DNA from: Deltaproteobacteria bacterium UBA4427 | GTDB taxonomy: Bacteria > Myxococcota_A > UBA9160 > UBA4427 | Reading direction: 5' to 3' | Length of the DNA: 55,819 nt | NCBI GenBank assembly: GCA_963854795.1 | Contig: CAWLAJ010000001.1 | Location: 1-55,819 of the forward strand | Notes under the pieces: model-generated | The model's database searches: none | The model's input: only the letters and a program-made list of their open reading frames with translations | What the model was told of the DNA's origin: nothing | Part shown: positions 3,383 to 29,603 of the stretch, piece by piece | Numbering within the stretch: position 1 is the first letter of the stretch | Layout: each line of letters starts with the position of its first letter | Program-made: the position numbers and the translations under genes

Positions 3383-4384
3383 CTACCCAACCCCGCGGTT
3401 CGCTTCAGACCCCTTGGGCTGGGTTCGCCAGCGCCGATGGGTCCAGATCCACTGGCCAGGCGACTCTCGTATTTCCCTTTCGATCACGGCGGTGACCTGC
3501 TGGACATTGCGCCGTAGGATTTCTTCATCATCAGAAGCTCCGGGCGCGAGCTGGAGTGCCGGTTGAATCCGTAGGCAATGGCTGCGTCCGTCGGGCGCTC
3601 GGCGCACGAAGGCCGCCAGGACTGGAATTCCCCGCGCGGACGCGAGCGCGAGCGGCCCAGAGCGCGTGTTGGCCGGTCGGCCAAAGAAGGAGACGAAGAC
3701 GCCCTCCTCGCGGCGCGCGTCCTGATCGAGCAGGACAAGGACTTTTCGGCCTGCCTCGAGCGCACGAACGAACCGGATTCCCGCGCGTCCCATCGGGATC
3801 TGTTCGAGGGCCGGCGCGTCCGCGTCGTCGCCGCCTCGATTCGACGCAGCTCGAAGGCCGAGCATCATTTCCGTGAGTGCCGGCCGGCCGAGGTCGCGGT
3901 AGACGACGGAAATCGGAATGCCCAGTTCCGCAACTTTGGCACAAGCGATTTCCCAGTTTCCGTAGTGCGCGGTCACCATCAAGAGTCCGCCGGTCGGGCT
4001 CGCGCGCTCCGCCGCTTCGACATGCTCGAGGCCCTCGACCGAGACCCGTTCGAGCAATTCGCTTCGACGACGGCCGCGGAGGACGATCAGTTCGGCCAGA
4101 CCGCGACCAAGATGTTCGAAGACCTCTCGGGCCCAGACTTCTCTTCGCCCCGCATCTTCATCCGGCAGGGCGCGACCCAACTGCTCGCGAACGCGCACCG
4201 CCCGTGGCGCACCGATGCGATCCCAGCACCGACCGGCCAGGGCGCCCATCGCCACACTTCGATCGATCGGGATTCGCTCGAAGACGAAGGTCAAGAAGGA
4301 GGCGAGACCTAGAAGAGTTCGATCGGCCAGGGAGAGGGTACGCGGCGACAAAGGGCCCGATTCCTGATTCGCCTCATCCACCAT
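3383..4384 (-). CDS. lipid A biosynthesis lauroyl/myristoyl acyltransferase family protein (LpxL/HtrB, LABLAT)
   Basis: The HYGNWE (H-x4-E) catalytic motif, GRPANTRSGPLALA and the C-terminal PGQWIWTHRRW are typical of the family. Its start overlaps the stop of the upstream carboxylase (TGATG at 4382-4386). Confidence 0.8.
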   Translation of the reverse strand: MVDEANQESGPLSPRTLSLADRTLLGLASFLTFVFERIPIDRSVAMGALAGRCWDRIGAPRAVRVREQLGRALPDEDAGRREVWAREVFEHLGRGLAELIVLRGRRRSELLERVSVEGLEHVEAAERASPTGGLLMVTAHYGNWEIACAKVAELGIPISVVYRDLGRPALTEMMLGLRAASNRGGDDADAPALEQIPMGRAGIRFVRALEAGRKVLVLLDQDARREEGVFVSFFGRPANTRSGPLALASARGIPVLAAFVRRAPDGRSHCLRIQPALQLAPGASDDEEILRRNVQQVTAVIEREIRESPGQWIWTHRRWRTQPKGSEANRGVG

Positions 4385-10005: not shown

Positions 10006-10760
10006 GCTGTGCGTACTCGCGTCACGACGGAGGGACGCGTGGACTGCTGGCTTGCCAGAGACCGCTCATCCTTCTCTGAATGCGATTCGAGGCCCATCGC
10101 ATAACCAACCCATTTCCCGTGATGCGACAGCGATAGAGACAGGTCGGTTGGGGCGTCGTCGAAGACGAGGGTCGGGATGCGTCCGCGACCCCCGATGGAG
10201 AGTCGCTCCACCGCGACGCCCAGCCTTTGTCCGATTTCGCGGATCGCCAGTTCCCGAACGGCGGTATTCGGGTCCTGCGGCTCGCGACCGAGACTCTCGA
10301 CGGCAAAGTCGACGCCGCCCCAATCCGTCCTGGCCGGCGCCGCGATCACATGGATACGCTCCAAACTCTCGTCCGTCCGCAATTCGAGTTCGAGCGGCTC
10401 TCGTCGTTTCCCGGGTCGAGAGTCGGGTCGAGAGTCGGGCGCGGGCGCCAAGCCAATATCCGGCCATTCGAGTAGGAGACTTCCACGGCGCTCGCGCTTT
10501 TCGGCGCCTTCGCTCGCCATCGGCGCATAACATGCAATCAGTCGCCGCGGCGCGAACACGAATGTCGGATCGATCTGCCGCGCAAGCTTGTAGGCAGCTT
10601 CCTTTGCGGCCCAATGTGCCCATCGTCTCGCGAGCGGATTCGGATCTTCCGCGATCGCACGTCGTTCGCTCTCGGAAAAGACGCGTCGATCGAAGCCCGG
10701 CCGAAAGGTCTCCGGGCGAGCGTCGCGATCGCGGAGATCCACGACGTCATTGCCGAGCAT
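10002..10760 (-). CDS. 4'-phosphopantetheinyl transferase
   Basis: GNDVVDL at the N-terminus, RVFSESERRAI, and WAAKEAAYKL (the W/KEA motif of PPTases). ATG at 10760 (the track starts at the TTG at 10763). It overlaps the upstream acyltransferase 3' end by 14 nt. It contains a 12-nt tandem duplication encoding PDSRPDSRP. Confidence 0.75.
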   Translation of the reverse strand: MLGNDVVDLRDRDARPETFRPGFDRRVFSESERRAIAEDPNPLARRWAHWAAKEAAYKLARQIDPTFVFAPRRLIACYAPMASEGAEKRERRGSLLLEWPDIGLAPAPDSRPDSRPGKRREPLELELRTDESLERIHVIAAPARTDWGGVDFAVESLGREPQDPNTAVRELAIREIGQRLGVAVERLSIGGRGRIPTLVFDDAPTDLSLSLSHHGKWVGYAMGLESHSEKDERSLASQQSTRPSVVTRVRTA

Positions 10761-11559
10761 CAAAATAGTCCCTTTCCAGATGTGCGAGCTGACGGGTCAC
10801 CTGACGCGACAGATCGAGCGAACGGCGCACGCCGCGCGCGTCGCTCTTCGGTTCGATACAGACCATTGAAACGTCGAAGACATCCCCCTTCTCGGGAAAA
10901 TCACTCCAGGACGTCTGCCTGTGCCCGCGCAAATAGACACAGAGCACGCGACAGCGGGGAACGCGACCCACGACACGACCCACACCCCAGGCCGCGGCCT
11001 CTTCATCCACGCGGCCGGATCGGCTTCGACCCGCTTCCGGAAAGAGCAAGGCCGTCTCGCCGCTCGAGAGCAGGTACCGAACACGCTCGAGGACCGAGGC
11101 AACGCCTTCGCGCGATCCTCCACGTGTGATCGAAATGCACTTCATCCAGTAGATCATGATCCGCGAGGTCCACGTCGTCCCAAAATTCGTGCTCTCCGGA
11201 GTGTTCCAGACCATCTCGTCGGGGTGGGTCAGCCAATACACGCCCGATCCCAAGGCCCAGGAGACCAGGAACGAATCGACCAGGGTCAGATGATTGGCAC
11301 AGATGAGCATCGGGGCGTTCGATTGGCGCCGAATTCGTTGGTACTCCGCACGAAGCGAAGTGACTCTCTCGATCCGGTATCGGAAATGGAAACGCATCGC
11401 GAGGATCGTCAGACCTAGCCAGATCGGCGAGGTCAAGATGCTCACGATTCGCTGCCGCCCATGGCGGCGCACCATCAGGGAATCCCCGCCAGCGGGCCCT
11501 CTCGCCACGGTCGGAGAATCCGAGCGATGGTCCTCCGCGCCGGTCATCTGGTCATTCAT
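10747..11559 (-). CDS. PlsC-family (1-acyl-sn-glycerol-3-phosphate / lysophospholipid) acyltransferase
   Basis: H-x4-D block ANHLTLVDS, FPEAGRSRSG block, and an N-terminal TM segment IVSILTSPIWLGLTILAM. Confidence 0.8.
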   Translation of the reverse strand: MNDQMTGAEDHRSDSPTVARGPAGGDSLMVRRHGRQRIVSILTSPIWLGLTILAMRFHFRYRIERVTSLRAEYQRIRRQSNAPMLICANHLTLVDSFLVSWALGSGVYWLTHPDEMVWNTPESTNFGTTWTSRIMIYWMKCISITRGGSREGVASVLERVRYLLSSGETALLFPEAGRSRSGRVDEEAAAWGVGRVVGRVPRCRVLCVYLRGHRQTSWSDFPEKGDVFDVSMVCIEPKSDARGVRRSLDLSRQVTRQLAHLERDYFDARQ

Positions 11560-11595
11560 TTCGGGACTCGCATATGCAGGTCTCTCGAAATCGAA

Positions 11596-11841
11596 TCAGA
11601 GCTTTCCCGAAATGAGATTGACGGCATCGCCCACGGTATTGACCTGATCAACGTCTTCATCCGCAATCTCGATATCGAAATCGTCTTCAAAGGCGATGAC
11701 GACATCCACGAGTCGCGCCGAATTGACTTTGAGATCGTCCAGAATATTGGTCTCCATCGAGACCTGGCCCAATGCCGCTTCGTCCTTGACCCACGGCGTG
11801 AGAATCTTGACGACTCGCTCCATCACTTCCGACTGTTCCAT
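11596..11841 (-). CDS. acyl carrier protein (atypical attachment-site motif)
   Basis: 81 aa, acidic, four-helix ACP pattern. The presumed phosphopantetheine serine lies in DDLKVNSARLVDVV instead of the canonical DLGxDSLDxVE. Confidence 0.8.
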   Translation of the reverse strand: MEQSEVMERVVKILTPWVKDEAALGQVSMETNILDDLKVNSARLVDVVIAFEDDFDIEIADEDVDQVNTVGDAVNLISGKL

Positions 11842-11922
11842 CCTTCACTCCCTCTTCTTGGCTCTTGTTACTTCTGTCTTTTCTTCATGAGAATCTCATT
11901 CGCTCGTTGGAAGAATCTCCGA

Positions 11923-11938
11923 CGAACGCATGCGTTCG
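11923..11938. promoter_or_regulatory. perfect 16-nt palindrome CGAACGCATGCGTTCG between the KS stop and the ACP start (hairpin or operator)
   Basis: Read directly from the sequence. It lies in the 103-nt gap, the largest intergenic gap inside the operon. Confidence 0.3.
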
Positions 11939-11944
11939 CGAGCG

Positions 11945-13237
11945 CTACTCCTTGTAGCGCTTGAAAACGAGACAGGCATTGACGTCGCCGAATCCAAATC
12001 CGGCCTTTACGAGTACTTCGAGGTCCGGCATTTCGATCATGCTATGCGGAATCGATTTCGCGTGCTTTTCGATTTCCGGATGAATGTCCTCACAGTTGAT
12101 CGAAGGATGGACGAAGCCACGCTCGACCATCAAGATCGACGCGACGGCTTCGAGACCTCCGGCCGCTCCGAGCGCATGTCCCACCATGCTCTTGGTTGCC
12201 GTCAGTGGCGGCAGTGATCCGGGATCTCGTCCCAACGCCTTCGCCCAGGAATCGACTTCCTTCGGATCCGCTCCGGTCGCAGTCAGATGACCATTGATCG
12301 CATCGACTTCGTCGGGACGAACACCGGCGTCCGCGAGAGCGTCGGAAATACAGCGCTGAACGCTGGTCGGATTCGGAGCCGTCATGCTGCCGCCCATTCG
12401 ATGGCCGCCACAATTGATGCCAGAACCCGCGAGTTCGGCACGAATCTTCGCACCTCGCGCCAGCGCACTCTCGAGGCTTTCGAGCATGACGGCGCCGGCA
12501 CCCGAACCGGGTATGAAACCACCCGCGGACGCACTCAAGGGCCGCGATGCCTTTTCAGGTTCGTCATTCGAATTGCGATTCAAGACGCGCATCGAATCGA
12601 ACCCCGCCCAGATGAAATGACTCGCCGCCTCGACTCCGCCGCAGAGCATCCGATCGGCCAGCCCCGCACGAATCCGTTCCATTCCCATAGAGAGGGCTTC
12701 GGTTCCCGTGCTGCAAGCGCTGGAATTGGTCGTCACCTGATTGCCGAGAGCCAGCAGCCCCGAAAGCCGCGCCGAAATTCCGCTGGCCATCACCTGCTCA
12801 ACGCAGACCGAGCCCATTCGCCGCACCTTGGCAGCATTGGTGAGAGGAACGACTTTTTCGGCGATCGTATCCATTCCCCCGATCCCGGTACCCATGATTG
12901 CGCCGGTTTCCCAATTCACTTCGTCAGAGTCCTCGGCGGGACGTTCGAGTCCGGCGTCCAACCACGCCTCGATCGCCGCGAGTCCCGCGTAACGATGATT
13001 CATATTCATCGCCATCAGCTGTTCTTCGGTAAAAGTCTCTTCACATAGCGCGTCCACACCTTCGGGCGTACCCGCAACCGTGCAGCCGAATTTCGCTTCG
13101 GCCATCGCTTCCTGATGTCGCAGGCCCGAGTGACCCTTGCGCAGTGCCATCTCGAAATCAGCCACGCCGTTCCCGTTCGGCGCGATGACGCCGATGCCGG
13201 TAATGACCACGCGCTTGCGTTCCTGGTTCCCACTCAT
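11945..13237 (-). CDS. beta-ketoacyl-ACP synthase I/II (FabB/FabF-like elongating KS)
   Basis: VVITGIGVIAPNG; active-site Cys in NSSACSTG; His residues in INGHLTAT and MVGHALGAAG. I prefer the ATG at 13237 (MSGNQERK...), which forms an ATGA overlap with the dehydratase stop. The track start at 13273 would overlap further. Confidence 0.85.
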   Translation of the reverse strand: MSGNQERKRVVITGIGVIAPNGNGVADFEMALRKGHSGLRHQEAMAEAKFGCTVAGTPEGVDALCEETFTEEQLMAMNMNHRYAGLAAIEAWLDAGLERPAEDSDEVNWETGAIMGTGIGGMDTIAEKVVPLTNAAKVRRMGSVCVEQVMASGISARLSGLLALGNQVTTNSSACSTGTEALSMGMERIRAGLADRMLCGGVEAASHFIWAGFDSMRVLNRNSNDEPEKASRPLSASAGGFIPGSGAGAVMLESLESALARGAKIRAELAGSGINCGGHRMGGSMTAPNPTSVQRCISDALADAGVRPDEVDAINGHLTATGADPKEVDSWAKALGRDPGSLPPLTATKSMVGHALGAAGGLEAVASILMVERGFVHPSINCEDIHPEIEKHAKSIPHSMIEMPDLEVLVKAGFGFGDVNACLVFKRYKE

Positions 13238-13692
13238 CGTGGCACTCCCATTCCGGACAGCTCTCCCGAGCAAACGACCGTCCCATCATCGATCGTCATC
13301 TCAAAGGTGGCACGCAGTTTCTTGCGGCGAAAGAACTTCACGCGTCCGGTCGTCTGAACCCGATCTCCCGGCCGTACGGCGCCCGAGAAATCAATGTTGC
13401 AATCGGTAAAGATCGTGAGCAGCTTGCCGACATCCTCCCGCGAAGTCTGGAGCGCATAGAGGTAAATGCCAAACGCAACGACACTCGCCTGCGCGGCGGT
13501 TTCGATCAAGATGACACCCGGCGTGATCGGATTGCCCGGGAAGTGGCCGCGATAGAAGTCGGCTTCTGGCGAGAAGGTATGGCGCGCCACGATATGGTCG
13601 GCATCGAGTTCGAGAATCTCGTCGATGAAACGAAACGGCTCCTGTTGCGGCACCAATGCCAGGACTTCGGCGACCGAAAGTGTGTCACCCAC
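13234..13692 (-). CDS. fabZ: 3-hydroxyacyl-ACP dehydratase, FabZ-like hotdog fold
   Basis: PFRFIDEILELD...GHFPGNPITPGVILIETAAQ signature. The preferred start is the GTG at 13692, preceded by GGAGG with an 8-nt spacer. The alternative ATG at 13713 lacks an SD. The track start at 13785 lies inside fabG. Confidence 0.75.
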   Translation of the reverse strand: MGDTLSVAEVLALVPQQEPFRFIDEILELDADHIVARHTFSPEADFYRGHFPGNPITPGVILIETAAQASVVAFGIYLYALQTSREDVGKLLTIFTDCNIDFSGAVRPGDRVQTTGRVKFFRRKKLRATFEMTIDDGTVVCSGELSGMGVPR

Positions 13693-14413
13693 CGTACATG
13701 CCTCCGTTGACATGGAGGACCGTCCCATTGATGTAACTCCCGCGCGTCGCGAGAAACGCGACGACATCGGCGATCTCATCCGCATTGCCCATTCTCCCCA
13801 TCGGGATCTTGGCCAGAATCGCTTCCTTGACTTCTTCTGGTAGCTCTTTGGTCATTTCGGTATCGATGAACCCGGGCGCGATCGAATTGATCAGGATGTC
13901 GCGGCCGGCGAGTTCCTGTGCGACGGACTTGGTCATGGCATCGAGACCCGCCTTCACCATCGTATAGGGAACCTGCCCGGGATTCCCGGTATGTCCGACC
14001 ACGCTCGAAATATTGATGATGCGCCCCGTTCCCTTCCGCAACATGAATCGACGCAAGATCAACTTCGTGAGATACCAGGTTCCCCGCTCGACACTGGCGA
14101 CGGCATCATATTGGTCGAGTTTCATCGCGAGCATCGGCGCGTTTTCGTTGTAGCCCGCGTTGTTGACGAGGACGTCGACGCGTCCGGCAACTTCTTTGAG
14201 TTCCTTGACGAGTGCATCGAGGGTTTCGGGTTCCATCAGGTCGGCCCGGATCGTGAAGGCGCCATCGAGTTCGGCGGCGAGCTTTTTGGCCTTTTCCTCG
14301 CTCGAGCGATAGTGGATGCCCACTCGAAAACCCTCGCCGGCAAGTCGACGACAACAAGTGGCACCGATTCCGGTTCCACCTCCCGTCACCAACGCGATCG
14401 GCTGATCACTCAT
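13685..14413 (-). CDS. fabG: 3-oxoacyl-ACP reductase (SDR)
   Basis: TGGGTGIG cofactor motif, NNAG, and the catalytic YTMVK (Y-x3-K). 242 aa. ATGA overlap with the fabA stop at 14410-14413. Confidence 0.85.
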   Translation of the reverse strand: MSDQPIALVTGGGTGIGATCCRRLAGEGFRVGIHYRSSEEKAKKLAAELDGAFTIRADLMEPETLDALVKELKEVAGRVDVLVNNAGYNENAPMLAMKLDQYDAVASVERGTWYLTKLILRRFMLRKGTGRIINISSVVGHTGNPGQVPYTMVKAGLDAMTKSVAQELAGRDILINSIAPGFIDTEMTKELPEEVKEAILAKIPMGRMGNADEIADVVAFLATRGSYINGTVLHVNGGMYGG

Positions 14414-15003
14414 CGTTCCGTCCTTCCGCCATGGGCGTTCTCGCTCTCGAAGGGGTAGTCCGGATAGTCGATCCCTTGAAAGAGCCCGACCCGAGCACCC
14501 TTGATCGTATAGATTTCCTCGTCATCGATCAGCACCTGCGCGTCGCCGATCACCATCGCCGCGCCCGCCTTCTTGAGTTCGGTGTAGCGCTTGATCTGAA
14601 CCTCGTATCGCATCATCCCGTCGTGCGGCCGGATTTGACCAAAGAACTCGACCTCTCCGCACCCGAGTGCCCGTCCGGTCCCGACGCCCCCTCGCCAATT
14701 GCAATAGAAACCGAGCAGCTGCCAGACACCATCGAGGCCGAGACATCCCGGCTGAACCGGGTCATCCAGGAAATGACAATGAAAGAACCAATCATCGAGC
14801 CGCACATCACGAGCCGCGCTGATCTTTCCGCGACTCTTGTCGGCGCTGATCTCGTCGATCCGGTCGACCATCAACATCGGCGGTAGCGGCAAGCGCGCGC
14901 GAAAACCCTCCGGCGGATCCTTGATCAAACGGCCATAGGCAAAGGCGAGCAACTCCGATTGCGAAAAAGAATCGCGCCCCAGAAACTCAGCATGAGTCAG
15001 CAT
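14410..15003 (-). CDS. fabA: 3-hydroxydecanoyl-ACP dehydratase / trans-2-decenoyl-ACP isomerase
   Basis: Strong match to the FabA core: LPLPPMLMVDRI, DWFFHCHFLDDPVQPGCLGLDGVWQLLGFY, GRALGCGEVEFFGQIRP. Confidence 0.85.
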   Translation of the reverse strand: MLTHAEFLGRDSFSQSELLAFAYGRLIKDPPEGFRARLPLPPMLMVDRIDEISADKSRGKISAARDVRLDDWFFHCHFLDDPVQPGCLGLDGVWQLLGFYCNWRGGVGTGRALGCGEVEFFGQIRPHDGMMRYEVQIKRYTELKKAGAAMVIGDAQVLIDDEEIYTIKGARVGLFQGIDYPDYPFESENAHGGRTER

Positions 15004-15009
15004 TGCAGT

Positions 15010-16005
15010 TCAGTCGTCCTCGTGAAAACGCATAAGATAACTCCCCCAGGTGAGCCCAGAACCCACACCCACGACGCAAATATCATCGTTTTGGGTCCAT
15101 TTGTCCCAATCCTGGGAGATCACACCACCAGAACTCGCCCCGCCTGTATTTCCGAAATACTCACAATTGAAATGATGTCGATCTTCCGGGATTTCACAGC
15201 GCTGACAGACGGATTCGAGCATTCGAAGATTCGCCTGATGACCGACGAAATGAAAATTTCGCTGATCCCCTTCGAATTCTTCGCGAGTCTTCAAATAGAG
15301 ATCGGAGGTCTTGCGAATGGCAAAGGCCTGGACCGTTCGGCCTTCTTGTCGGAAATGCCCATTGCGAGGAATCACGACTTTCCCATGACCGCGGGGATCG
15401 CTGGTCAGTGTTTGACCCAGCAGAGCCGCCCGGCCGCGATGTTTCGTCGAGAGTACTGCCGCGAGCGCGCCATCTCCCCAAAGCACCGCTGAAGATCGGT
15501 CGTTGTAGTCGACGGTTCCCGTCATCGGTTCCGCCGTCACCAACAAGACGACTTCAGGAAGCTTGGCCGGGTCCATCAACGAAAGCATGTAGATGCCCGC
15601 AATGAAACTCGAACACGCCGAACTGATGTCGAGACAGGCCGCCTCGACTTCGAGTTCCGCGCCGATATTGCACGCTTCGGCCGGCGACGCCGTATCGGGT
15701 GCGCATCCGCCCCCGATCAAGAGCCCGACATCCGACGTGGATACACCCGCGCGATCCAGCGCCATCCTTGCTGCTCGCCCACCCATCGCGGCATTCGAGA
15801 CCAGGGCGGCTTGCGTGGCTTCGCGGGGATCTCGATTCCGGGTTTCACGAATATAGTCGAGAGGGAGCGCCGTCCGTCGACTGCGGATTCCGGTTCGCTC
15901 GAGAATCCATTCGTCATTGGTGCCGATGTCGAGTTCTTCGAGGAATCGATTCGTAATTTCGTTCTCGGGATGGAAATGGCCCAATCCCAAAAGATTCAAG
16001 CTCAA
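15010..16005 (-). CDS. fabH: 3-oxoacyl-ACP synthase III (KAS III)
   Basis: Cys-His-Asn triad contexts SSACSSF, VGHQANLRM and FGNTGGAS. 331 aa. Confidence 0.8.
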   Translation of the reverse strand: MSLNLLGLGHFHPENEITNRFLEELDIGTNDEWILERTGIRSRRTALPLDYIRETRNRDPREATQAALVSNAAMGGRAARMALDRAGVSTSDVGLLIGGGCAPDTASPAEACNIGAELEVEAACLDISSACSSFIAGIYMLSLMDPAKLPEVVLLVTAEPMTGTVDYNDRSSAVLWGDGALAAVLSTKHRGRAALLGQTLTSDPRGHGKVVIPRNGHFRQEGRTVQAFAIRKTSDLYLKTREEFEGDQRNFHFVGHQANLRMLESVCQRCEIPEDRHHFNCEYFGNTGGASSGGVISQDWDKWTQNDDICVVGVGSGLTWGSYLMRFHEDD

Positions 16006-16074
16006 GACTATTCTCCAAGCTGGATCACGTGTCGCGAGTCGGAAGCCAACGATGCCTCCTCGTGCGATGCGTGT

Positions 16075-17025
16075 TCAGCGAGTCGCTCCTGAAATGTGCT
16101 CCCCACCGTCGACGCGAATCACTTCACCATTGATCCAACTCGCTTCGTCCTGGGAGAGAAGAAAGATCACACCCGCAACGTCTTCGGGCGTGGTCAGGCG
16201 ACATCCGGGGTTGCGCAGCCGTGCCTGACTCTTCAGCTGATCACTACCCGGGATGGCTCGCAATGCGGGCGTATTGGTCACGCCCGCCTGAATCACATTG
16301 CAGCGGATGCCGTGTGGGCCGAACTCGACGGCGATCGAACGCGAGAGCGCCTCGAGTGAAACCTTGGCCGCCGAGACCGCCGCATAGCCGCGCCAGGCCA
16401 CTTCATTGCCCTCGCTGGTCAGCCCGAAGATGCGCGTGTCCGGAGCGAAGAGACCTCGTGCAAACAATTCCTGCGTCCAGCCGAGCAGACTCGTACCCAT
16501 GGCCAGAATCGTACGACTGAAGTCTTCCTCGTCGAGGTAGGAACTGTCGGGGTAGATCGGAGCGCTCGTGAGGGGGTGCAGACCATCTTCACCCTCTTCG
16601 AAGAGTTCATCCGCAAGTTCGGTCAGTTTGGCGGGATCGACACCGAGTCGAGTAGCGAGATTCGGGCCCGCAGTCCGCTCTTCTCTCTTCTCCGGAGCGA
16701 TTAGTTTGAGATTCCCGAAGGCGATCGAATGTAACAAGACGCGAATTCGACCCTCCGGTCCGATCGCCTCGGCAATAGAATCGATCGTGAGCGTGCGTTT
16801 GTCCGCACTGATCGCGTCGGCGTTCCAGATATGGAGTCCGGTTCCGATTTCGGCCAGCTCGTCGAAATGAGGTTGGATGTTCTTCATCGCCCCCCGCCGA
16901 TCACGATGGACGATCAAGATGTTCAGCCCACCACGGGCCAGACGTTTGGCGGTCGCCAAACCAAAACCGCTGGAGCCACCCAGAATCAGCGCCCACTCAT
17001 TGCTCGGAAAATCGCTCGTTGCCAA
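16075..17025 (-). CDS. SDR-family enoyl-ACP reductase-like protein (FabI/FabL-type Y-x6-K) with an internal insertion
   Basis: Rossmann motif ILGGSSGFGLA. YAAVSAAK gives the Tyr-x6-Lys spacing characteristic of enoyl reductases rather than the Y-x3-K of ketoreductases. A roughly 50-aa acidic insertion (EKREERTAG...EEGEDGL...) is present. It is the first gene of the operon. Confidence 0.55.
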   Translation of the reverse strand: MATSDFPSNEWALILGGSSGFGLATAKRLARGGLNILIVHRDRRGAMKNIQPHFDELAEIGTGLHIWNADAISADKRTLTIDSIAEAIGPEGRIRVLLHSIAFGNLKLIAPEKREERTAGPNLATRLGVDPAKLTELADELFEEGEDGLHPLTSAPIYPDSSYLDEEDFSRTILAMGTSLLGWTQELFARGLFAPDTRIFGLTSEGNEVAWRGYAAVSAAKVSLEALSRSIAVEFGPHGIRCNVIQAGVTNTPALRAIPGSDQLKSQARLRNPGCRLTTPEDVAGVIFLLSQDEASWINGEVIRVDGGEHISGATR

Positions 17026-17475: not shown

Positions 17476-20439
17476 TCATCGACCCAGGCCGAGTTCACTC
17501 ACAATTCGCGGCAGATCTTCGCGCGGCGCAATCTGGATCTTCGTGCCCTCTGGCAGGGCGTCCGGCAGGCGTCTGAAATAGCCGCGATCTTGCCGGGCAT
17601 CGACGATCACAACGATCCCGCGATCGGTTTCGCTGCGAATCAGACGGCCCACCATCTGTTTGAGATTGAGCAGCATCCGCCCGAGCGAGGCGCGGACGAA
17701 GGGATCCCCGCCCGCCTCCCGCAGGCGCGTGTCGCGCCGACGTCGCAATTCCGTGGGTACCTCGAAGGGCAACTTCTCGATCACGACCGCCTGAAGGTCG
17801 TCCCCTCGAACATCGATCCCCTGCCAGAAGCGACGAGCTCCCAACAGAACGGCGCCGCCCGGCGCGTTCTGAAATCGCTCGACCAAAGCCCCGGGATCAT
17901 CACCGGCGTGACGCGGGAGGAGGATCTCGATGCCCTCGCCCGCGAGCAGCGAGCTCAATCGATCCGCGGTTTCCCGCATTCGCGCCAGACTCGTGAACAG
18001 GCCGAGCGTTCGCCCACCGAGACTGCGCGCAAGCGTGGCGAGTGTCTGGGCCGTCTCTTCGACCAACTCGGAATCACTCTCGATCGCAATGACTCGCATC
18101 GCATGCTCGTAGGGAAAGGGCGAACCGACCGCGTGACTCCAGCTGTCGGCGAGTTCGCTCTGCCCGAGTCCCACTTCTCCCAAGGCAGCGAAATCGTCGC
18201 CTCCTACGAAGAGCGTCGCCGATACGACGGCCAGACCCTCGACGCGACCGAGAAATTGATCGCGGAACGCCTCCCCCGGATCCACCGGTCGCAAGACGAG
18301 AGACCATCGATCATAGGGAGTCTCGAGCCGCTCGAAGGCTCCGACATAATCAGGGTTGTCGGAACCGAAAGCGATCCGTAGCGCACCCGCGGCGTCTCGA
18401 AGCGCCTCACCATGAACGTCGATCACCCGACCGGCCTCTTCCTCGGCATCGCGATCACGCTTGGGCTTGCCCTCAACGTCCTCTCCGTCCTGCGCAACGA
18501 CCATGCGACGGGCCGGCCCTTCGCGCTCGGCGAGAGCCGCGAGCCACTCGAGCCGTGTTGCCGCGGTCTCGGCAAGTTCGCCCGCCCTCGGAATGATCTC
18601 GCCTGCCCCATCCGGGAGCTCCGCCGAACCGAACGAGTCGGCGCGATCCGCCATCGTCCGTCCCAGGCCGGAGAGTTCGAGCATCAGGTCCCGCCGATTC
18701 TGCCCCAACGCCTTCTCTTCGCCTCGTCCAGCCGGTGCGGCGACCAACCCGCTCGTCGCATGGCGTCTCTGCGGCCCTCGAGCCGACATACCGAACAGCT
18801 CCTCGAGCCGTTCGGAGACGTCCTCCGGCCGCACACGCAGCGCATAGACCTCTTCCGCCACATTGCCGACTTCATGTCCCTCATCCATGACGACGTGTGA
18901 AAAACTCGGGTAGTCGGGGGGCCAGCGCAGCAGTAGATCGTGATTCGCGACGACGAGATGCGCCTTGCCCAGGGACTTTCGATGCTGCCCGAAGGGACAA
19001 TTGCGCTCGAAGGCGCACTGCTCGCGAGAACACTGATCGGGACGTGCGGCCACACTCGCCCGCAACAGCTCACGGAGCCTCGGACGCTGGCGCAGAAGAG
19101 CGGCCGGGATCGTTCCGACTTCTCCGTGGGGTCGGATCCGTGCGCAGGCCTCGAGCATTGCGTAATCCGCGCGTATCGAAGCCTGCAAGGCCGGGTCGCG
19201 CGCTTGCGCGAGCGAGGCCGCGAGACGTCGTTCACAGATGTAGTTCGCCCGCCCCTTGATCGACAACGCTCGCAGCCTCGGATAGCCGAGAAAGCGCGCG
19301 GCCGCCGAAATGTCCTTTCGAAGCAGTTGATCCTGCAAGAGCTTGGTTCTCGTGGACAGGACTATGGGTTCCCGGCTGCCCTTCGCCTCCTGCGCCATCG
19401 CGAAGGGGATGACTGCCGCGAGATAGGCGAGAGATTTCCCGACCCCGGTCCCACCTTCGAGGCGCGCGACGCCGCCGTCGGCCAATACACGTACGAACTC
19501 GCGAACCAGATCGAGTTGTTCCTCGCGAACGCGGTAGGCGGGAAAGTGTCGCTCGCCGCGTTCCTGATCCGACAGGGCCTCGACGATCGCATCGATCTCG
19601 AAGGGCACCGGTTCTTCATCGCTTTCCCCGATCTGCAGGAAGCGCGGGTCCGATTTCGCTTCTTCTCCCGACGTGGCTTCTCTAGAGGAGTCGCCGACCA
19701 CGAGGGCCCGTGCGCTGCGACGAGCGAAACCGACGAAATCAAAATCTTCGGCGTCGCTCGCGACGGCCACCTGTCCAAGCAGGACGCACCATGGCGAGTG
19801 GTTCAGATGTCGATCGAGGATCCGACCGGCTTGGCAATAGCGTGCGACGCCGGTGCGCGCGCCCTGCGCCAAGGCGGCCAGAACACATGCAACGTCGATC
19901 GCATCCTCGAGCGCGCGATGACGTTCCTCGCGTCCCAGCAAGAGCCGCGTAAACGTTTCGAGTCGAAGATCCGGGGCATCCGGATGCGTGAAGGCGAGAA
20001 TTTCCTGTGTGTCGAGGTAGTGGAGCGCGCCGAATCCCGAATCGATGTCGCGTTCGAGAAAGCTGCGCTCGAAATCGACCTGGTGGGCGACCAGAACACG
20101 TCCACCGAGTAGATCCCGAACGTCCTCGCGAACCATCGACAAGGTCGGCTTGGTCCGAACATCCGCATCGACGATCCCGGTCAGTCGACTGACGGCCGGT
20201 GGGATACCCAGCCGTGGCCGCAGCAGCGTGCTGGCGACGCCGACCGTCGATTCGTCGGGATCGAGCAGCAGAATGCCGATCTCGAGAATCTCTGCCGAAC
20301 GACTCGAGGGTAGACCGGTCGTTTTGAGATCGACTACGGCGACCGGACCGACGGCATCGAGCCAAGGGCGGAGCGCCGAAAAGGAAGGCGTTGCGAAACC
20401 GAGCGAAGAGGGATCACGGCGCTCGACCCGAAGCACCAA
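17476..20439 (-). CDS. dinG: DinG-family ATP-dependent DNA helicase with N-terminal DnaQ-like exonuclease domain
   Basis: The exonuclease-like N-terminus shows VAVVDLKTTG, VAHQVDFERSFL and HRALEDAID. Walker A is GGTGVGKSLAYL and the DEAH-box variant is VMDEGHEV. Four Cys of an XPD/DinG Fe-S cluster are present (YICERR, QCSREQCAFERNCPF). Confidence 0.85.
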   Translation of the reverse strand: MVLRVERRDPSSLGFATPSFSALRPWLDAVGPVAVVDLKTTGLPSSRSAEILEIGILLLDPDESTVGVASTLLRPRLGIPPAVSRLTGIVDADVRTKPTLSMVREDVRDLLGGRVLVAHQVDFERSFLERDIDSGFGALHYLDTQEILAFTHPDAPDLRLETFTRLLLGREERHRALEDAIDVACVLAALAQGARTGVARYCQAGRILDRHLNHSPWCVLLGQVAVASDAEDFDFVGFARRSARALVVGDSSREATSGEEAKSDPRFLQIGESDEEPVPFEIDAIVEALSDQERGERHFPAYRVREEQLDLVREFVRVLADGGVARLEGGTGVGKSLAYLAAVIPFAMAQEAKGSREPIVLSTRTKLLQDQLLRKDISAAARFLGYPRLRALSIKGRANYICERRLAASLAQARDPALQASIRADYAMLEACARIRPHGEVGTIPAALLRQRPRLRELLRASVAARPDQCSREQCAFERNCPFGQHRKSLGKAHLVVANHDLLLRWPPDYPSFSHVVMDEGHEVGNVAEEVYALRVRPEDVSERLEELFGMSARGPQRRHATSGLVAAPAGRGEEKALGQNRRDLMLELSGLGRTMADRADSFGSAELPDGAGEIIPRAGELAETAATRLEWLAALAEREGPARRMVVAQDGEDVEGKPKRDRDAEEEAGRVIDVHGEALRDAAGALRIAFGSDNPDYVGAFERLETPYDRWSLVLRPVDPGEAFRDQFLGRVEGLAVVSATLFVGGDDFAALGEVGLGQSELADSWSHAVGSPFPYEHAMRVIAIESDSELVEETAQTLATLARSLGGRTLGLFTSLARMRETADRLSSLLAGEGIEILLPRHAGDDPGALVERFQNAPGGAVLLGARRFWQGIDVRGDDLQAVVIEKLPFEVPTELRRRRDTRLREAGGDPFVRASLGRMLLNLKQMVGRLIRSETDRGIVVIVDARQDRGYFRRLPDALPEGTKIQIAPREDLPRIVSELGLGR

Positions 20440-23019: not shown

Positions 23020-23312
23020 GACCTGATCGTTGCCTCCACGACAAGTGTCGCTGCACGCTTCTCGCGCCACGGACCCTCTCGTCGTTCATCTTGATCCTGC
23101 TTGATTTTGATCCCGCTCGTTTTATGGTGTTGTTTTTGGTGTTGTTTTCTGTTCTGTTATTTCGTTCGCCCGGTCACTCCATGGTGCGGACTGGAGAGAT
23201 AATGGAGGCTCGGAGGCTCTCCTGCAACCGGCCGAAACGACGCGAAGGGGCACGGCGATCCGATTCGAGTCGTCGGCCGCTCACTCACTTCAATTGTGAT
23301 CTGAAACACGAA

Positions 23313-23912
23313 TCATTCGAGTCGTGCAAGAACGTCAGTCATCGCCATGGGATCGAGCCAGATATGGTAGTTCTCGCGAACGTCGACGAATTGAATCGTG
23401 CCGGACCGATCCAACACCAGCGTCGTGGGGTGCGGCACCCCTATCTCAATGGCCTCCGGATTATCTTTCAAGATGCCAAGCTCGCTGATCAATCGACTCT
23501 TCGGGTCCGCCAGAAAGAGGATCCGCTGCGCCAAACCGAGTTCATCGATGAAGACGCGCGTGCGCTCGTTGATCTGTACCTCGGACATGATCCAGACGAT
23601 TCGCAGATCGGGTGTCGCGTCGAAGGCTTCTCGCAGCTCCACGAGCCGCGCCTTGGTATACGGTCACCAATCCACGCTGCGTTCGAACGTGATCAGGACA
23701 CGATGCCCGAGCAGATCGTCGCGAGTCACTGCGGCGCCATTCAAGTCGATCAGCTCGAGTTCGGGAAGTTGTTGGCCAACTAACAACTCGCTCGTGATAT
23801 CGGCGCGAACCTTGTTCTCGGATCCGCGATGGCTCAGAGAACTCGTCGGCAACGCGAAGTTGAGGCCGATGAGACCGACGAGCACGAGCGTTGCCAAGGC
23901 ACGCAATATCAT
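23313..23912 (-). CDS. thioredoxin-fold redoxin (AhpC/TSA PRX-like, WCPYC family) with in-frame TGA at the first redox position; candidate selenoprotein (or pseudogene)
   Basis: ATG at 23912 with AAGGAA 7 nt upstream, and a signal/TM segment MILRALATLVLVGLIGL. The sequence GHRVLITFERSVDW-[TGA 23664-23666]-PYTKARLVELREAF continues in the same frame into ORF 23313-23642 (...VPHPTTLVLDRSGTIQFV). Homologous families have W-C-P-Y-C at this point. Confidence 0.55.
23623..23654 (-). promoter_or_regulatory. candidate bacterial SECIS hairpin
   Basis: The mRNA reads UGA-CCGUAUACC-AAGGC-GCGGCUC-GUG-GAGCUGC-GAGAA-GCCUU. The lower stem is 5 bp (AAGGC/GCCUU), there is a 3'-side bulge, and the upper stem is 7 bp (one G-U pair) with an apical GUG loop. 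It starts 9 nt after the UGA. Confidence 0.45.
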
Positions 23913-23941
23913 TCGAAGTTCCTTTGGCCCGAAAGCATGAT

Positions 23942-24370
23942 TCAGTCTTCTCTCTTCGTGGCCCTTCGGCTCTCCGAAACGGTCGGGCGCAGCCAGACGA
24001 GCGCAAGCGAGATCATCAGGAATGCGCTGGCTTCGGTTCTCGGCAGATTTCCGAGCCAGACATAATAGTCGCCGACGAACCACACCATCATTCGAATCAC
24101 GGCCATCAGCGCAAAGACGAACGCGGTCATGGTACCGACCGAACGGGACGAGAGTGGATCGCGCGCCGCCCCGAGCAGACCACCGGCCCAACCCAGGAGC
24201 GCGCAGCCTGTAAACGCGACGAAATAGTGTCCGACCGGACCCGTCGGGATCATGGGTACCGAGCCCGGCCGCTGGTACGCGAAAAAAGTGGCGACCAGAC
24301 TGAGCCCGAAAACCAGGATCGCCACGGCGAGAATGCCCATCAAGAGTCGATAGAGTCGCAGGCGATTCAT
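23942..24370 (-). CDS. hypothetical integral membrane protein (about 4 TM helices)
   Basis: Hydrophobic segments LLMGILAVAILVFGLSLVATFF, HYFVAFTGCALLGWAGGLLGAA, MTAFVFALMAVIRMMVWFV and SAFLMISLALVWL. I prefer the start at ATG 24370. The track start at 24433 would be only 4 nt from the divergent MFS start. Confidence 0.5.
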   Translation of the reverse strand: MNRLRLYRLLMGILAVAILVFGLSLVATFFAYQRPGSVPMIPTGPVGHYFVAFTGCALLGWAGGLLGAARDPLSSRSVGTMTAFVFALMAVIRMMVWFVGDYYVWLGNLPRTEASAFLMISLALVWLRPTVSESRRATKRED

Positions 24371-27324: not shown

Positions 27325-27333
27325 CCTCTCTTG

Positions 27334-27600
27334 TCACGCTTCCTTTGCGTCGGATTTAGTCCTCTCGAGACATGCTCGGCAGATGCAGCTCTCCCCGTCA
27401 TCCCGACTCGCCGCCGTGGCGAGCAGAATCGCGGGGAACGATTCGCCGACACACCAGCAAGTTTCATCGCTCTTCGCATCGCCACTGGCGAGTGCACACT
27501 CGTTGGGTTCACCGCAGAGTACGCAGCGACTTCGGTCGACGGTGATGCCAATGGAAATCCGGGTCCCCGCTGATGTCGATGAGTCCGCTGGATCAATCAT
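27334..27600 (-). CDS. cysteine-rich CWC-family small protein
   Basis: 88 aa with the pattern C-x2-C...C...C-W-C...C-x-C-x2-C (RCVLCGEPNEC...TCWCVGE...CICRAC). Confidence 0.6.
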   Translation of the reverse strand: MIDPADSSTSAGTRISIGITVDRSRCVLCGEPNECALASGDAKSDETCWCVGESFPAILLATAASRDDGESCICRACLERTKSDAKEA

Positions 27601-27616
27601 GACGCAAGGCCCTTCA

Positions 27617-28267
27617 TCAGCGATCGTCCCTGGATTTCGGGGCGTCGGTCTTCAACCGATCTGACTTCTCCCATTCGTCCAGTAATTCCTTGCGTTCCTC
27701 GAACGAAAGAGAGCGGAAGCGACGCATGCGTTCTCGGTAGTCGTCACGATCCGATTCCGACATCGACTTCCAGCGACCGACATTCTGTTCGAGTTCTGCC
27801 TTCGGACGATTGGCGATGTGTCGGAGTTCCGCGACCAACTCTCGTCGCTGGCCCTCGTCGAGATCGTCGATTGTCCGCAGTCGCTTTCGGAACACGTCTC
27901 GTTCTGCTTCGGGCATCGCAAAGAGAGCCCGCAGCAGCACGACTCGCTCGAGTTCGGTGAAGTCGGGAAGAGCGATTCTAAGTCCAGCCACTCCGCGACG
28001 AAAGACCCGACGCTCGCGCGGCGTCGCACGTTCCCATCTATCGCGAGCCGCCTTTCGCAAGGCTCGCCGTTCGTCTCGCGTCGTCGAACGCCAGCGCGAA
28101 TTCACGTCACGTTCCTCACTCCGAGTCGCTCGTTCCTGCGAATCGCCTTCCCGATCTCTTGCGAAGGCCGTATCCGAGACGCCTAACGCTCCAATCAGGA
28201 TCAGCAGAACGCCAACGATGGTCAACGCCTTCGACGTGCATCGAGATCGATCGAGATACGAAGTCAT
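27617..28267 (-). CDS. DUF3106-like secreted repeat protein
   Basis: Signal/TM segment ALTIVGVLLILIGALGV. Arg/Glu-rich repeats have recurring W..(A/M)(T/S)P.ER / ER..FR motifs. It overlaps the anti-sigma stop by 4 nt. Confidence 0.5.
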   Translation of the reverse strand: MTSYLDRSRCTSKALTIVGVLLILIGALGVSDTAFARDREGDSQERATRSEERDVNSRWRSTTRDERRALRKAARDRWERATPRERRVFRRGVAGLRIALPDFTELERVVLLRALFAMPEAERDVFRKRLRTIDDLDEGQRRELVAELRHIANRPKAELEQNVGRWKSMSESDRDDYRERMRRFRSLSFEERKELLDEWEKSDRLKTDAPKSRDDR

Positions 28268-28896
28268 CCTCGTTCCTCCAACTCGCCGACCGACGATTCG
28301 CGGGTCGAAAGAAAGTCGAGCAGATCGAGCTGCTCGATCACGTCCATGTCGTCGCTCGTGATCCCACGGAGTGGAGACATCTCATCCCCGTAACCCAGGA
28401 CCAGGACGAGTTCGTCTTCGAGGGCGCTGCCCATGATGTTGAAGTCGAATTCCTCGACGCCGGCCGGGTCTTTCGCATCCGCAACGACTTCAGCAGGTGC
28501 TTCCATCGTGTTAGGCTCCTGCGCCACGATGAGGTAGAACAAGAACGCGGCGGCGGCCGCAAGTAGCAGCGGGATGGCGGGTCGCTCCGAGAGCTTCCCG
28601 AGGCCACCGGCCACGAAGCGCGAGGGTCGCGATCCAGTAGACGCATCCGCTGAATCGAGATCGAGCCGCGCGCGCAGATTCGCGAGTGTCGATGCCAGGC
28701 GTTCTTCGCTGATCGATTCTTCCGCAAGCGCTTCGAGGTGGTGGTCGACTTCTTCGAAGGCGCGAGCGCGTTCGCGGTACAAGGGCTCGTCTGCCAACAA
28801 CGTCTCGAGTTCAGCGTGCTCCGCATTTGTGAGTCGACCATCCATGCGAGCCGAGAGCAGCTCGTCCAATCGATCCAGATCGTCGTGATCGTTCAT
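28264..28896 (-). CDS. anti-sigma factor (zf-HC2-less, single TM)
   Basis: Its position is immediately after the ECF sigma with an ATGA overlap (28893-28896). N-terminal MNDHDDLDRLDELLSARMDGRLTNAEHAELETLLA is typical of RseA/ChrR-like anti-sigma N-domains. TM segment IPLLLAAAAAFLFYLIV. Confidence 0.6.
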   Translation of the reverse strand: MNDHDDLDRLDELLSARMDGRLTNAEHAELETLLADEPLYRERARAFEEVDHHLEALAEESISEERLASTLANLRARLDLDSADASTGSRPSRFVAGGLGKLSERPAIPLLLAAAAAFLFYLIVAQEPNTMEAPAEVVADAKDPAGVEEFDFNIMGSALEDELVLVLGYGDEMSPLRGITSDDMDVIEQLDLLDFLSTRESSVGELEERG

Positions 28897-29495
28897 CGTC
28901 CCCCCTCCGCAATCGCATCGCTCGAGGCGACCATTCGATCGGCAAGGTTTGCGCGGGCACGGTGTACCAGGGACTTCACCGAGGCGACCGAGGTCTCCAG
29001 GACCTCTGCGATTTCTTCGTATGAATGACCCTCGACAGCGGCCAGCCACAGCGCGCTTCGCTGTCGTTCGGGAAGTTCAGACAACTCTGCGTCCAATCTC
29101 GAGACCGCCCGCCTGGTTTCGAGAACGGACAGCGCGCTCGGCCGATCGGAAACCAGCGTCAGGACCGGGGTCTTCCCATCGCGGTCGTCCATCCGATCCG
29201 TCGACAGATGGGGCATTCGTCGATGTGCGCGGTCGAGTTCGTTCAGAGCGAGATTTCGACCGATCCGAAAGAGCCAGGTCGAAAAGCGTGCCTCGGGCGA
29301 GTAGCGCTCCCTAGCACCATGAACTCGTATGAAGGTCTCTTGCACCAATTCTTCGGCCGTCGCTCGTTCTCGCACCATCCGCTCCAAATAGCGAAGGAGG
29401 GGACCCGCCCATTTGCCATAAAGATCCGAAAGGGCGGCTTGATCGCCATCGCGAAACGCGAGCATGAGCCGGATATCCGGATCACCGTTCTGCAT
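28893..29495 (-). CDS. ECF (sigma-70 family, group 4) RNA polymerase sigma factor
   Basis: Region 2 (ELVQETFIRVHGARERY, FSTWLFRIGRNLALNE) and region 4 HTH (GHSYEEIAEVLETSVASVKSLVHRAR). The SD GGAGCGGAGGTGA lies before the ATG. Confidence 0.85.
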   Translation of the reverse strand: MQNGDPDIRLMLAFRDGDQAALSDLYGKWAGPLLRYLERMVRERATAEELVQETFIRVHGARERYSPEARFSTWLFRIGRNLALNELDRAHRRMPHLSTDRMDDRDGKTPVLTLVSDRPSALSVLETRRAVSRLDAELSELPERQRSALWLAAVEGHSYEEIAEVLETSVASVKSLVHRARANLADRMVASSDAIAEGGR

Positions 29496-29603
29496 TTCAC
29501 CTCCGCTCCCATTCTGAACAGGCCAGGGGCGTCAGAGTTTCGCACGACCTTCGCAGCGCCCTCTAGGCGCATGGTCGACGATCACAGCGGGATTTTCAGC
29601 CGA

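Follow-up and report, generated by a model that had tools for sequence, protein, structure and literature searches.

Introduction

Thioredoxin-fold and peroxiredoxin-like (PRX-like) selenoproteins make up the largest class of prokaryotic selenoproteins. Here we analyse a stretch of 55,819 nucleotides from contig CAWLAJ010000001.1 of Deltaproteobacteria bacterium UBA4427 (GenBank assembly GCA_963854795.1; GTDB lineage Myxococcota_A), referred to below as the window, and focus on a redoxin gene whose in-frame TGA at codon 83 is, on comparison with its relatives, almost certainly a real selenocysteine (Sec, U) codon in a membrane-anchored thioredoxin-fold protein. PRX-like selenoproteins have been catalogued as 'Peroxiredoxin-like family protein, UxxS' and 'Prx-like thiol:disulfide oxidoreductase, UxxC/UxxU' (PMC13188914; PMC2398784, Table 2), and the Global Ocean Sampling (GOS) survey lists Prx-like 1-3 with UxxC (PMC2398784, Table 2). 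The catalogue also contains a 'Redoxin family protein' (UxxC) and TlpA-like UGC/UxxC proteins (PMC13188914). The combination of PF00578 with UxxT that we predict for this gene appears in none of the catalogue entries; the UxxS entry may belong to the same family or to a sister family.

Four groups of proteins invite comparison. With the PRX-like (cd02970-type) selenoproteins the gene shares the PF00578/PF08534 signature, a Sec that would stand first in a U-x-x-[C/S/T] motif after a conserved Trp, a putative selenocysteine insertion sequence (SECIS) inside the open reading frame (ORF) just downstream, and the common occurrence of Cys homologues; it differs in that the residue at +3 is always Thr, never Cys or Ser, in 90 TGA-containing genes (hereafter Sec forms), in its N-terminal membrane anchor and obligatory upstream partner gene for a protein with four transmembrane (TM) helices, and in its confinement to a Myxococcota clade. 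An N-terminal anchor, a thioredoxin fold and the placing of the putative Sec at the nucleophilic first Cys are features held in common with TlpA, ResA, CcmG and pneumococcal Etrx (cd02966), but the W-C-x-x-C dithiol motif of that group is not found here: its first Cys would be Sec and its second, resolving Cys is Thr, so that a classical dithiol/disulfide cycle would be impossible, and the gene is adjoined not by CcdA/DsbD but by the unrelated four-TM protein. Peroxiredoxins (BCP, Tpx, AhpE; selenoprotein form TxxU) have the same Pfam AhpC-TSA signature and fold, yet their T-x-x-C/U motif and the U-x-x-T proposed here are mirror arrangements. Finally, glutathione peroxidase (GPx)-type UxxT enzymes have a thioredoxin fold with Sec at the first-Cys position and Thr at +3, and use a single redox residue that is recycled by external thiols. 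The likeness to these enzymes lies in the motif (listed in PMC13188914) and would be a functional analogy only; PF00255 (GPx) gave no match at E <= 0.1.

A single reading frame with one internal TGA

A first-pass annotation of the window, made from the letters alone, had proposed that the TGA is the only break in an otherwise intact frame and encodes Sec in a U-P-Y-T motif, and had named as checks the search for a SECIS, for homologues with Cys in the same column and for orthologues with TGA at the same codon. The gene and the codon in question are as follows.

23313..23912, minus strand: predicted complete selenoprotein gene, 199 codons plus terminal TGA (23315..23313), start codon ATG 23912..23910
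23664..23666, minus strand: putative Sec-UGA, codon 83, motif W-U-P-Y-T-K; the column reads TGA or TGC/TGT across orthologues

Translation yields one 199-codon frame on the minus strand (23912..23313) whose sole internal stop is codon 83, a TGA at 23666..23664 with the surroundings ...FERSVDW, stop, PYTKARLVELREAF... The two ORF fragments on either side (23664-23912 and 23313-23642) lie in one frame and the codons between them are also open, which bears out the claim that this triplet alone separates them. Public gene calls on near-identical contigs split the gene into ORFs of 82 and 109 aa, both labelled hypothetical proteins. UGA is a normal stop in this stretch of the genome, since TGA terminates 21 of the 34 well-supported genes of the window, including the redoxin gene itself; the partner gene ends in TGA too. 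Codon 83 is the only in-frame TGA among these 34 genes, and a scan of the window for further in-frame TGA candidates returned nothing but antisense-frame or adjacent-gene artefacts.

TGA alternates with cysteine codons in orthologues

A scan of one genome per GTDB species recovered 39 loci, 38 of which retain the motif, the remaining one (L039) being a frameshifted copy. In these 38 species representatives the codon-83 column reads TGA in 21 and TGC/TGT in 17. A metagenome scan contributed 80 further loci, which are biased towards Sec forms because the query was built from Sec-form fragments; with all loci pooled, 90 of 112 carry TGA, 22 carry a Cys codon (TGC/TGT) and none carries any other codon. 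The protein databases give the same picture from the side of the Cys forms, as 31 full-length homologues of about 199 aa (52-75% identical, from Myxococcota metagenome-assembled genomes (MAGs), annotated as redoxin or peroxiredoxin) have Cys at the stop column in 30 cases and Ser in one, within the motif D-W-C-P-[FY]-T-K. Both kinds of relative that the first-pass annotation had wanted to see are thus abundant.

C-terminal fragments starting at the GTG after the TGA make up 89 clusters from the same protein search, of which 81 have a length of 109 aa and are 67-98% identical; N-terminal fragments of 81-85 aa, with ...DW as their last residues, number about 13. In line with this, a profile search over 1.84 billion cluster representatives gave five matches at E <= 1e-30 plus many N-terminal (81-85 aa) and C-terminal (108-109 aa) fragments. 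Such fragment pairs around one column carry the usual signature of gene calls truncated at what would be a Sec codon. A few database relatives have other residues at this column: Ser in some (DW-S-P-x-T; P0011, P0248, P0251, P0278) and Trp in others (DW-W-P[FY][CT]; P0259, P0263, P0321, P0351), the latter probably being TGA codons that gene callers read under code 4 or 25, and thus further Sec forms, UxxC relatives among them.

All TGA genes examined keep the start (MILR...) and the stop and have no second in-frame stop, and start and stop positions are conserved in the 38 orthologues. Across 22 species-level Sec forms the ratio of non-synonymous to synonymous substitution rates (dN/dS) has a median of 0.37 before the TGA (codons 1-82) and of 0.25 after it (codons 84-199), at a synonymous divergence (dS) of about 1.1, so both flanks of the TGA are under purifying selection. 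The residue at +3 is Thr in 90/90 Sec forms (U-P-x-T-K) and in 20/22 Cys forms, the other 2/22 having Ser. Sec and Cys forms are interleaved on the tree, and the Sec-form clade is restricted to Myxococcota.

Two side observations concern the records themselves. The frameshifted locus L039:9911-10510 (JAWKRX010000008.1, MAG BC2.74) is a second, syntenic copy of the whole neighbourhood within the MAG that also holds L022; the frame of its redoxin is lost after ...FERSVDWCP, which makes it either a pseudogene copy, an assembly error or the product of a mixed bin. In addition, the records of L001, L011, L015, L017, L019, L021 and L027 are titled 'uncultured Spirochaetaceae bacterium'; those with enough flank share the neighbourhood of the Myxococcota/Deltaproteobacteria MAGs, which suggests that these taxon labels are wrong.

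A hairpin conserved with the TGA

Downstream of the TGA the transcript can form a hairpin, which we describe in two nested versions.

23632..23650, minus strand: conserved core of the putative SECIS, an 8-bp stem CGCGGCUC/GAGCUGCG (one G-U pair) with a GUG triloop, defined by pairing across orthologues
23623..23654, minus strand: extended hairpin with the lower stem AAGGC/GCCUU, from the minimum free energy (MFE) fold of the window sequence

The MFE fold of 23610-23670 (-22.3 kcal/mol; z = -1.9 relative to shuffled sequences), in which a GUG loop caps an upper stem of 7 bp that stands on a lower stem of 5 bp, is exactly the hairpin that the first-pass annotation had drawn. That drawing stands as a fold of this sequence, but what orthologues conserve is the 8-bp stem (C17-G35 pairs) and not the 5-bp lower stem. 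The core starts 13 nt after the UGA and its loop lies 21 nt after it. The bacterial SECIS consensus describes a loop of 3-9 nt with a G in its first two positions, an upper stem of 4-16 bp, a distance of 16-37 nt from the UGA and an MFE <= -7.5 kcal/mol (PMC13188914, Fig. 2A), and the core, with its GUG loop, 8 bp, 21 nt and -11.8 kcal/mol, falls within it on all four counts (PMC13188914, Fig. 2A). Taken in this sequence alone the hairpin is only modestly unusual: in the window, which has 61% G+C, a SECIS-like hairpin without interruptions and of <= -7.5 kcal/mol follows about 6.7% of all TGA triplets, and one as stable as this core follows about 1%.

It is the comparative data that lift the hairpin beyond chance. 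After the UGA, the Sec forms all read CCN-UNN-ACN-AAG-GCG-CGG-CUC-GU(G/C/U)-GAG-CUG-CGN, and across 74 distinct Sec-form sequences 99.8% of the pair cells are standard pairs, a value that drops to 33-47% when the 3' partner is slid by 1-3 columns. All 8 bp are intact in 73/74 distinct Sec forms versus 1/20 Cys forms, and the mean hairpin MFE is -11.7 kcal/mol in the former and -4.7 kcal/mol in the latter. At the codon level, 5/6 stem codons of the Sec forms are invariant compared with 4/78 other degenerate codons whose amino acid is conserved (Fisher p = 2e-5); the corresponding figures for the Cys forms are 0/3 in the stem and 2/58 elsewhere. The synonymous sites of the stem are frozen in the Sec forms only. 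Hence the search for a SECIS ended both in agreement with the published consensus and in a synonymous-site conservation that is peculiar to genes with TGA.

The few departures from the shared hairpin are in keeping with the structure. In L070:1477-1524 and L078:1477-1524 the outermost pair has undergone a compensatory change from C-G to U-A, which entails two non-synonymous changes, A88V and R94H, so that in these two loci the RNA structure appears to have been preserved at the expense of the protein sequence. Two changes from G-C to G-U occur (L052/L053 and L116), and in L005 the loop-closing pair alone is open. Two deep clades with a protein identity of only about 50% have one and the same 19-nt hairpin. 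Among the Cys forms, L012:868-915 retains 8/8 pairs and L010:10247-10294 retains 7/8; L010 is nested within a Sec clade and L012 lies in a neighbouring Cys clade. We read these as relics of a recent replacement of Sec by Cys, which is what they look like. The comparative evidence shows UGA-83 to be kept as a sense codon where the hairpin is kept, and Cys to replace it where the hairpin decays. With the SECIS of the Escherichia coli fdhF type (bSECIS), the element has in common a stem-loop inside the ORF soon after the UGA and a small apical loop beginning with G-U; it differs in its triloop, the absence of a bulged U, an unrelated primary sequence and the lack of a match to an Rfam model.

Alternative explanations for the in-frame TGA

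One alternative is a split gene, in which an 82-aa membrane peptide would be followed by a separate 109-aa protein starting at a GTG (23642), with the hairpin serving translational coupling or regulation. The GTG lies 21 nt after the TGA and has an AAGG about 10 nt upstream, and gene callers predict the 109-aa ORF, but such a division would cut the thioredoxin fold exactly at the catalytic residue, and the GTG is the apical loop of the hairpin and hence sequestered. Moreover, this loop reads GUC or GUU, and thus provides no start codon, in 4/22 species-level Sec forms and in further metagenome contigs; the 7 codons between TGA and GTG are conserved as protein (P-[FY]-T-K-A-R-L), and species that lack the TGA have Cys in its place in every case, with no other residue there and no stop elsewhere. 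We consider a split gene very improbable.

We give as little weight to the idea that UGA is recoded in some other way, be it as Trp or Gly under an alternative code or by near-cognate read-through. The Trp found at this column in a few database representatives (DW-W-P[FY][CT]) could be taken to favour it, but this is most simply explained by gene calls made under code 4 or 25, and UGA is an ordinary stop in the window, as the 21 of 34 genes described above attest. Where the column does not read TGA it holds Cys, which is chemically analogous to Sec, and plain read-through would leave a hairpin that is conserved only together with TGA unexplained.

A nonsense-mutated pseudogene, in which a Cys codon became TGA and the gene died, would need only a single change from TGC or TGT and would fit the two fragments reported by gene callers. 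Against this, the TGA is present in 89 other contigs and in 21 species representatives, with no second stop or frameshift in any; the dN/dS of 0.25-0.37 on both sides at saturated dS, and the structure-specific synonymous constraint beside the TGA, are not those of a dead gene. The purifying selection on both sides excludes the pseudogene, and the dS of about 1.1 excludes the variant in which one recent clone accounts for all copies; we assign it next to no probability. An error of sequencing or assembly at 23664-23666, with TGC or TGT as the true codon, is just as far-fetched: nothing specific speaks for it beyond the generic worry about any single in-frame stop, and it is excluded because 89 other contigs carry TGA at the same codon, in independent assemblies of many projects (ENA, JGI, NCBI, Logan) that include contigs whose partner protein is 98% identical to that of the window.

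Several observations weigh against the Sec explanation or parts of it. Pairing of the lower stem AAGGC/GCCUU reaches only 80% among orthologues, without covariation, so that this stem is optional or incidental; covariation in the core itself amounts to one pair changed on both sides, which is thin support, as the stem hardly varies. Rfam was searched with 23200-24100 at E <= 10 and, at gathering thresholds, with the window as a whole, and neither search returned a SECIS or other relevant family. Pfam scans of 40 ORFs of the window found no SelA, SelB or SelD, ARAGORN found no tRNA, and thus no tRNA-Sec, in the window and L001-L039, and E. coli SelA, SelB and SelD, used as tblastn queries on 828 kb made up of the window and all loci, gave no match; these machinery searches covered at most 20 kb around the gene per related genome, plus the window itself, and their result is uninformative because this is a small part of each genome. 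Finally, a conserved Cys56 in TM2 of the partner protein is present in 68/84 sequences and missing from some distant members, and this lack of universality weakens the partner as a resolving thiol. The Sec trait as such is present in Myxococcota, where Anaeromyxobacter dehalogenans has 11 selenoproteins (PMC1794560).

Taking these points together with the evidence above, we hold with high confidence that the best explanation of the locus as a whole is a Sec-UGA with its SECIS in the gene of an anchored redoxin that is coupled to a membrane partner. The proposal that the UGA stands for selenocysteine in a U-P-Y-T motif is supported by the Sec/Cys column, by selection and by the Sec-form-specific hairpin.

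Fold, active site and family of the redoxin

The encoded protein was analysed with Cys in place of the stop, and two parts of it can be delimited.

23850..23909, minus strand: N-terminal hydrophobic helix, residues 2-21, a helix in the AlphaFold2 model; MILRxLAxLVLL is kept in homologues
23367..23780, minus strand: predicted thioredoxin-fold (AhpC/TSA / Redoxin) domain, residues 45-182, from Pfam, the AlphaFold2 model and Foldseek

The joined protein matches Pfam AhpC-TSA over residues 45-175 (E = 3.3e-13, 50.1 bits against a cut-off of 26) and Redoxin (E = 3.3e-06). The AlphaFold2 model (predicted local distance difference test score, pLDDT, 80) comprises a helix at residues 2-20, a linker and a thioredoxin-type fold in which residue 83 lies just before the helix 85-99. 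The earlier description of a signal-anchored thioredoxin-fold protein agrees with these matches and with the modelled N-terminal helix and fold. Residues 2-21 are probably an uncleaved signal anchor, and by analogy with TlpA, ResA and Etrx the redoxin domain probably faces the periplasm.

By sequence profile, the best matches among solved structures are Etrx 2yp6 (7.7e-08) and 4hqz, SdbA 5um7, ResA 4nmu and TlpA 1jfu, and in 2yp6, 4hqz, 5um7 and 4nmu residue 83 aligns with the first Cys of W-C-x-x-C. Foldseek scores peroxiredoxins (Tpx 3keb, AhpE 5c04, BCP) and ResA about equally, with TM-scores up to 0.79. An hhalign comparison with E. coli BCP places Sec83 in the Thr column of PxxxTxxC and Thr86 in the column of the peroxidatic Cys; the peroxiredoxin Pro column is occupied by Arg78 and that of the catalytic Arg by Pro162. 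Since the Pro, the peroxidatic Cys and the Arg of peroxiredoxins are all absent, the protein is not a canonical peroxiredoxin. The first-pass placing in the PRX-like/AhpC-TSA subfamily is therefore right as to the AhpC/TSA signature, but the putative Sec occupies the position of a thioredoxin-like first Cys and the peroxiredoxin active site is missing.

The motif is U-P-[FY]-T, and no other Cys is conserved in the protein. Of the distant relatives, 99 of about 130 aligned representative stretches read F-x-R-S-x-D-W-C-P-[YF]-C, as expected from the earlier statement that related PRX-like proteins have the motif (F/Y)xRxxWCPYC at this point, and the block F-E-R-S-V-D-W-U-P-Y-T fits the PRX_like2-type block save for the last Cys. 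On alignment, the family forms a small clade that is specific to Myxococcota and splits off from the PRX-like redoxins with FxRSxDW-C-P-[YF]-C, the second motif Cys having been replaced by Thr. With Thr in that place, the sole redox-active residue would be Sec, with Cys in its place in other species. The family falls outside all NCBIfam models, the best match being WAxxUGC_long (E = 0.0023, 17 bits against a cut-off of 300).

Proposed mode of action

We propose that UGA codon 83 is decoded as selenocysteine during translation. Following the established bacterial mechanism, the hairpin (8-bp stem, GUG loop, 13 nt downstream) would act as a SECIS that recruits SelB-GTP-Sec-tRNA(Sec) to the ribosome. 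The product would be a thioredoxin-fold protein of 199 residues with an N-terminal anchor, probably facing the periplasm, and its gene would be co-transcribed with that of the four-helix membrane protein and, in most species, translationally coupled to it. As to chemistry, the protein may work as a mono-selenol oxidoreductase or peroxidase. Its selenolate may attack a peroxide, a sulfenic acid or a disulfide as the oxidised substrate, and either an external thiol or the membrane partner may then resolve the selenenic acid or selenenylsulfide so formed, in the manner of monothiol redoxins and of UxxT enzymes of the GPx type. Our confidence in such a one-residue mono-selenol cycle, drawn by analogy, is low.

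The membrane partner and the gene neighbourhood

The gene upstream of the redoxin and a possible ribosome-binding site complete the list of features.

23942..24370 (ORF open to 24433), minus strand: partner gene for a 142-aa four-helix membrane protein, ending 29 nt before the redoxin ATG
23920..23924, minus strand: Shine-Dalgarno-like AAGGA, 8-12 nt 5' of the ATG, read off the sequence

In each of the 38 GTDB loci with the motif, including distant loci in which all other synteny is gone, the partner gene is the immediate upstream neighbour of the redoxin, and the same holds for every locus that extends far enough. In 69/94 loci the two genes overlap by 4 or 1 nt, at the stop of the partner and the start of the redoxin; the gap in the window is 29 nt. 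Pfam returned nothing meaningful for the partner protein at E <= 10, and none of its 286 homologues has a name beyond 'hypothetical' or 'uncharacterized membrane protein'. Its confident AlphaFold2 model (pLDDT 90.6) has four TM helices, and Foldseek against the PDB found no match below E = 0.7, VKOR appearing only at E = 3.4. The distribution of charges suggests an N-in/C-in topology that would leave the two most conserved loops (YQRPxS..PTGPxGHYF and GDYxxWLGxLP) outside. A fixed Sec-Cys relay between redoxin and partner was considered and is not supported, the TM2 Cys being present in just 68/84.

Several further features of the flanks were noted. A long, G+C-rich inverted repeat at 23215-23312 (minus strand) follows right after the redoxin stop and gives a spurious weak Rfam miRNA match; as a stable element, the hairpin at 23225-23283 was rejected, being no better than shuffles (z = -0.34). 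The promoter and terminator scan stayed at background, with no T-tract terminator after the redoxin. The remaining window holds ordinary housekeeping genes, and in Pfam scans of its 40 ORFs none was selenium-related. At about 27330-29500 (by synteny with L121:4939-7100) lie genes for an extracytoplasmic function (ECF) sigma factor, a 210-aa ORF, a DUF3106 protein and a small Cys_rich_CWC protein; this cluster is about 3.5 kb from the redoxin operon, beyond genes for a major facilitator superfamily (MFS) protein and ThiI, and may be connected with envelope or redox stress signalling. Elsewhere, the regions 4384-10005 and 10002-17025 (both minus strand) contain a 1873-aa polypeptide that fuses biotin carboxylase, biotin-carrier domain and carboxyltransferase, adjoining a cluster resembling type-II fatty acid synthesis: phosphopantetheinyl transferase (PPTase), acyltransferase, an 81-aa ORF of acyl carrier protein (ACP) size, ketoacyl-ACP synthase (KAS), ketoreductase, FabA, FabH and a short-chain dehydrogenase/reductase (SDR). 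A 987-aa protein at 17476-20439 (minus strand) combines an N-terminal RNase_T/DnaQ-type exonuclease with a C-terminal DinG-type helicase domain and is syntenic in most related loci.

Implications

The gene joins a well-known selenoprotein class and leaves the understanding of selenocysteine decoding and of thioredoxin-fold selenoproteins unchanged. Its practical consequence lies in annotation, as the gene is widespread and is mis-annotated in public data wherever we examined it, and about 90 database clusters are fragments of it; a family model with the Sec column marked would mend the annotation in many Myxococcota MAGs. Moreover, the interleaving of Sec and Cys forms, the apparent relic SECIS elements and the A88V/R94H change together provide a clean natural experiment on the evolution of Sec use. 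The invariable pairing with the redoxin gives the family of partner proteins its first functional lead, which points to envelope redox chemistry.

A more speculative idea, which we regard as unlikely though worth stating, is that the two-gene unit represents an undescribed envelope redox system, in which the partner would play a part like that of DsbB, VKOR or CcdA and, with no Cys relay, would shuttle electrons between the lone selenol of the anchored U-x-x-T redoxin and a quinone or other cofactor of the membrane. If true, the unit would be a membrane-coupled periplasmic selenoperoxidase or sulfenate reductase with a cysteine-poor partner that has no detectable relatives of known structure.

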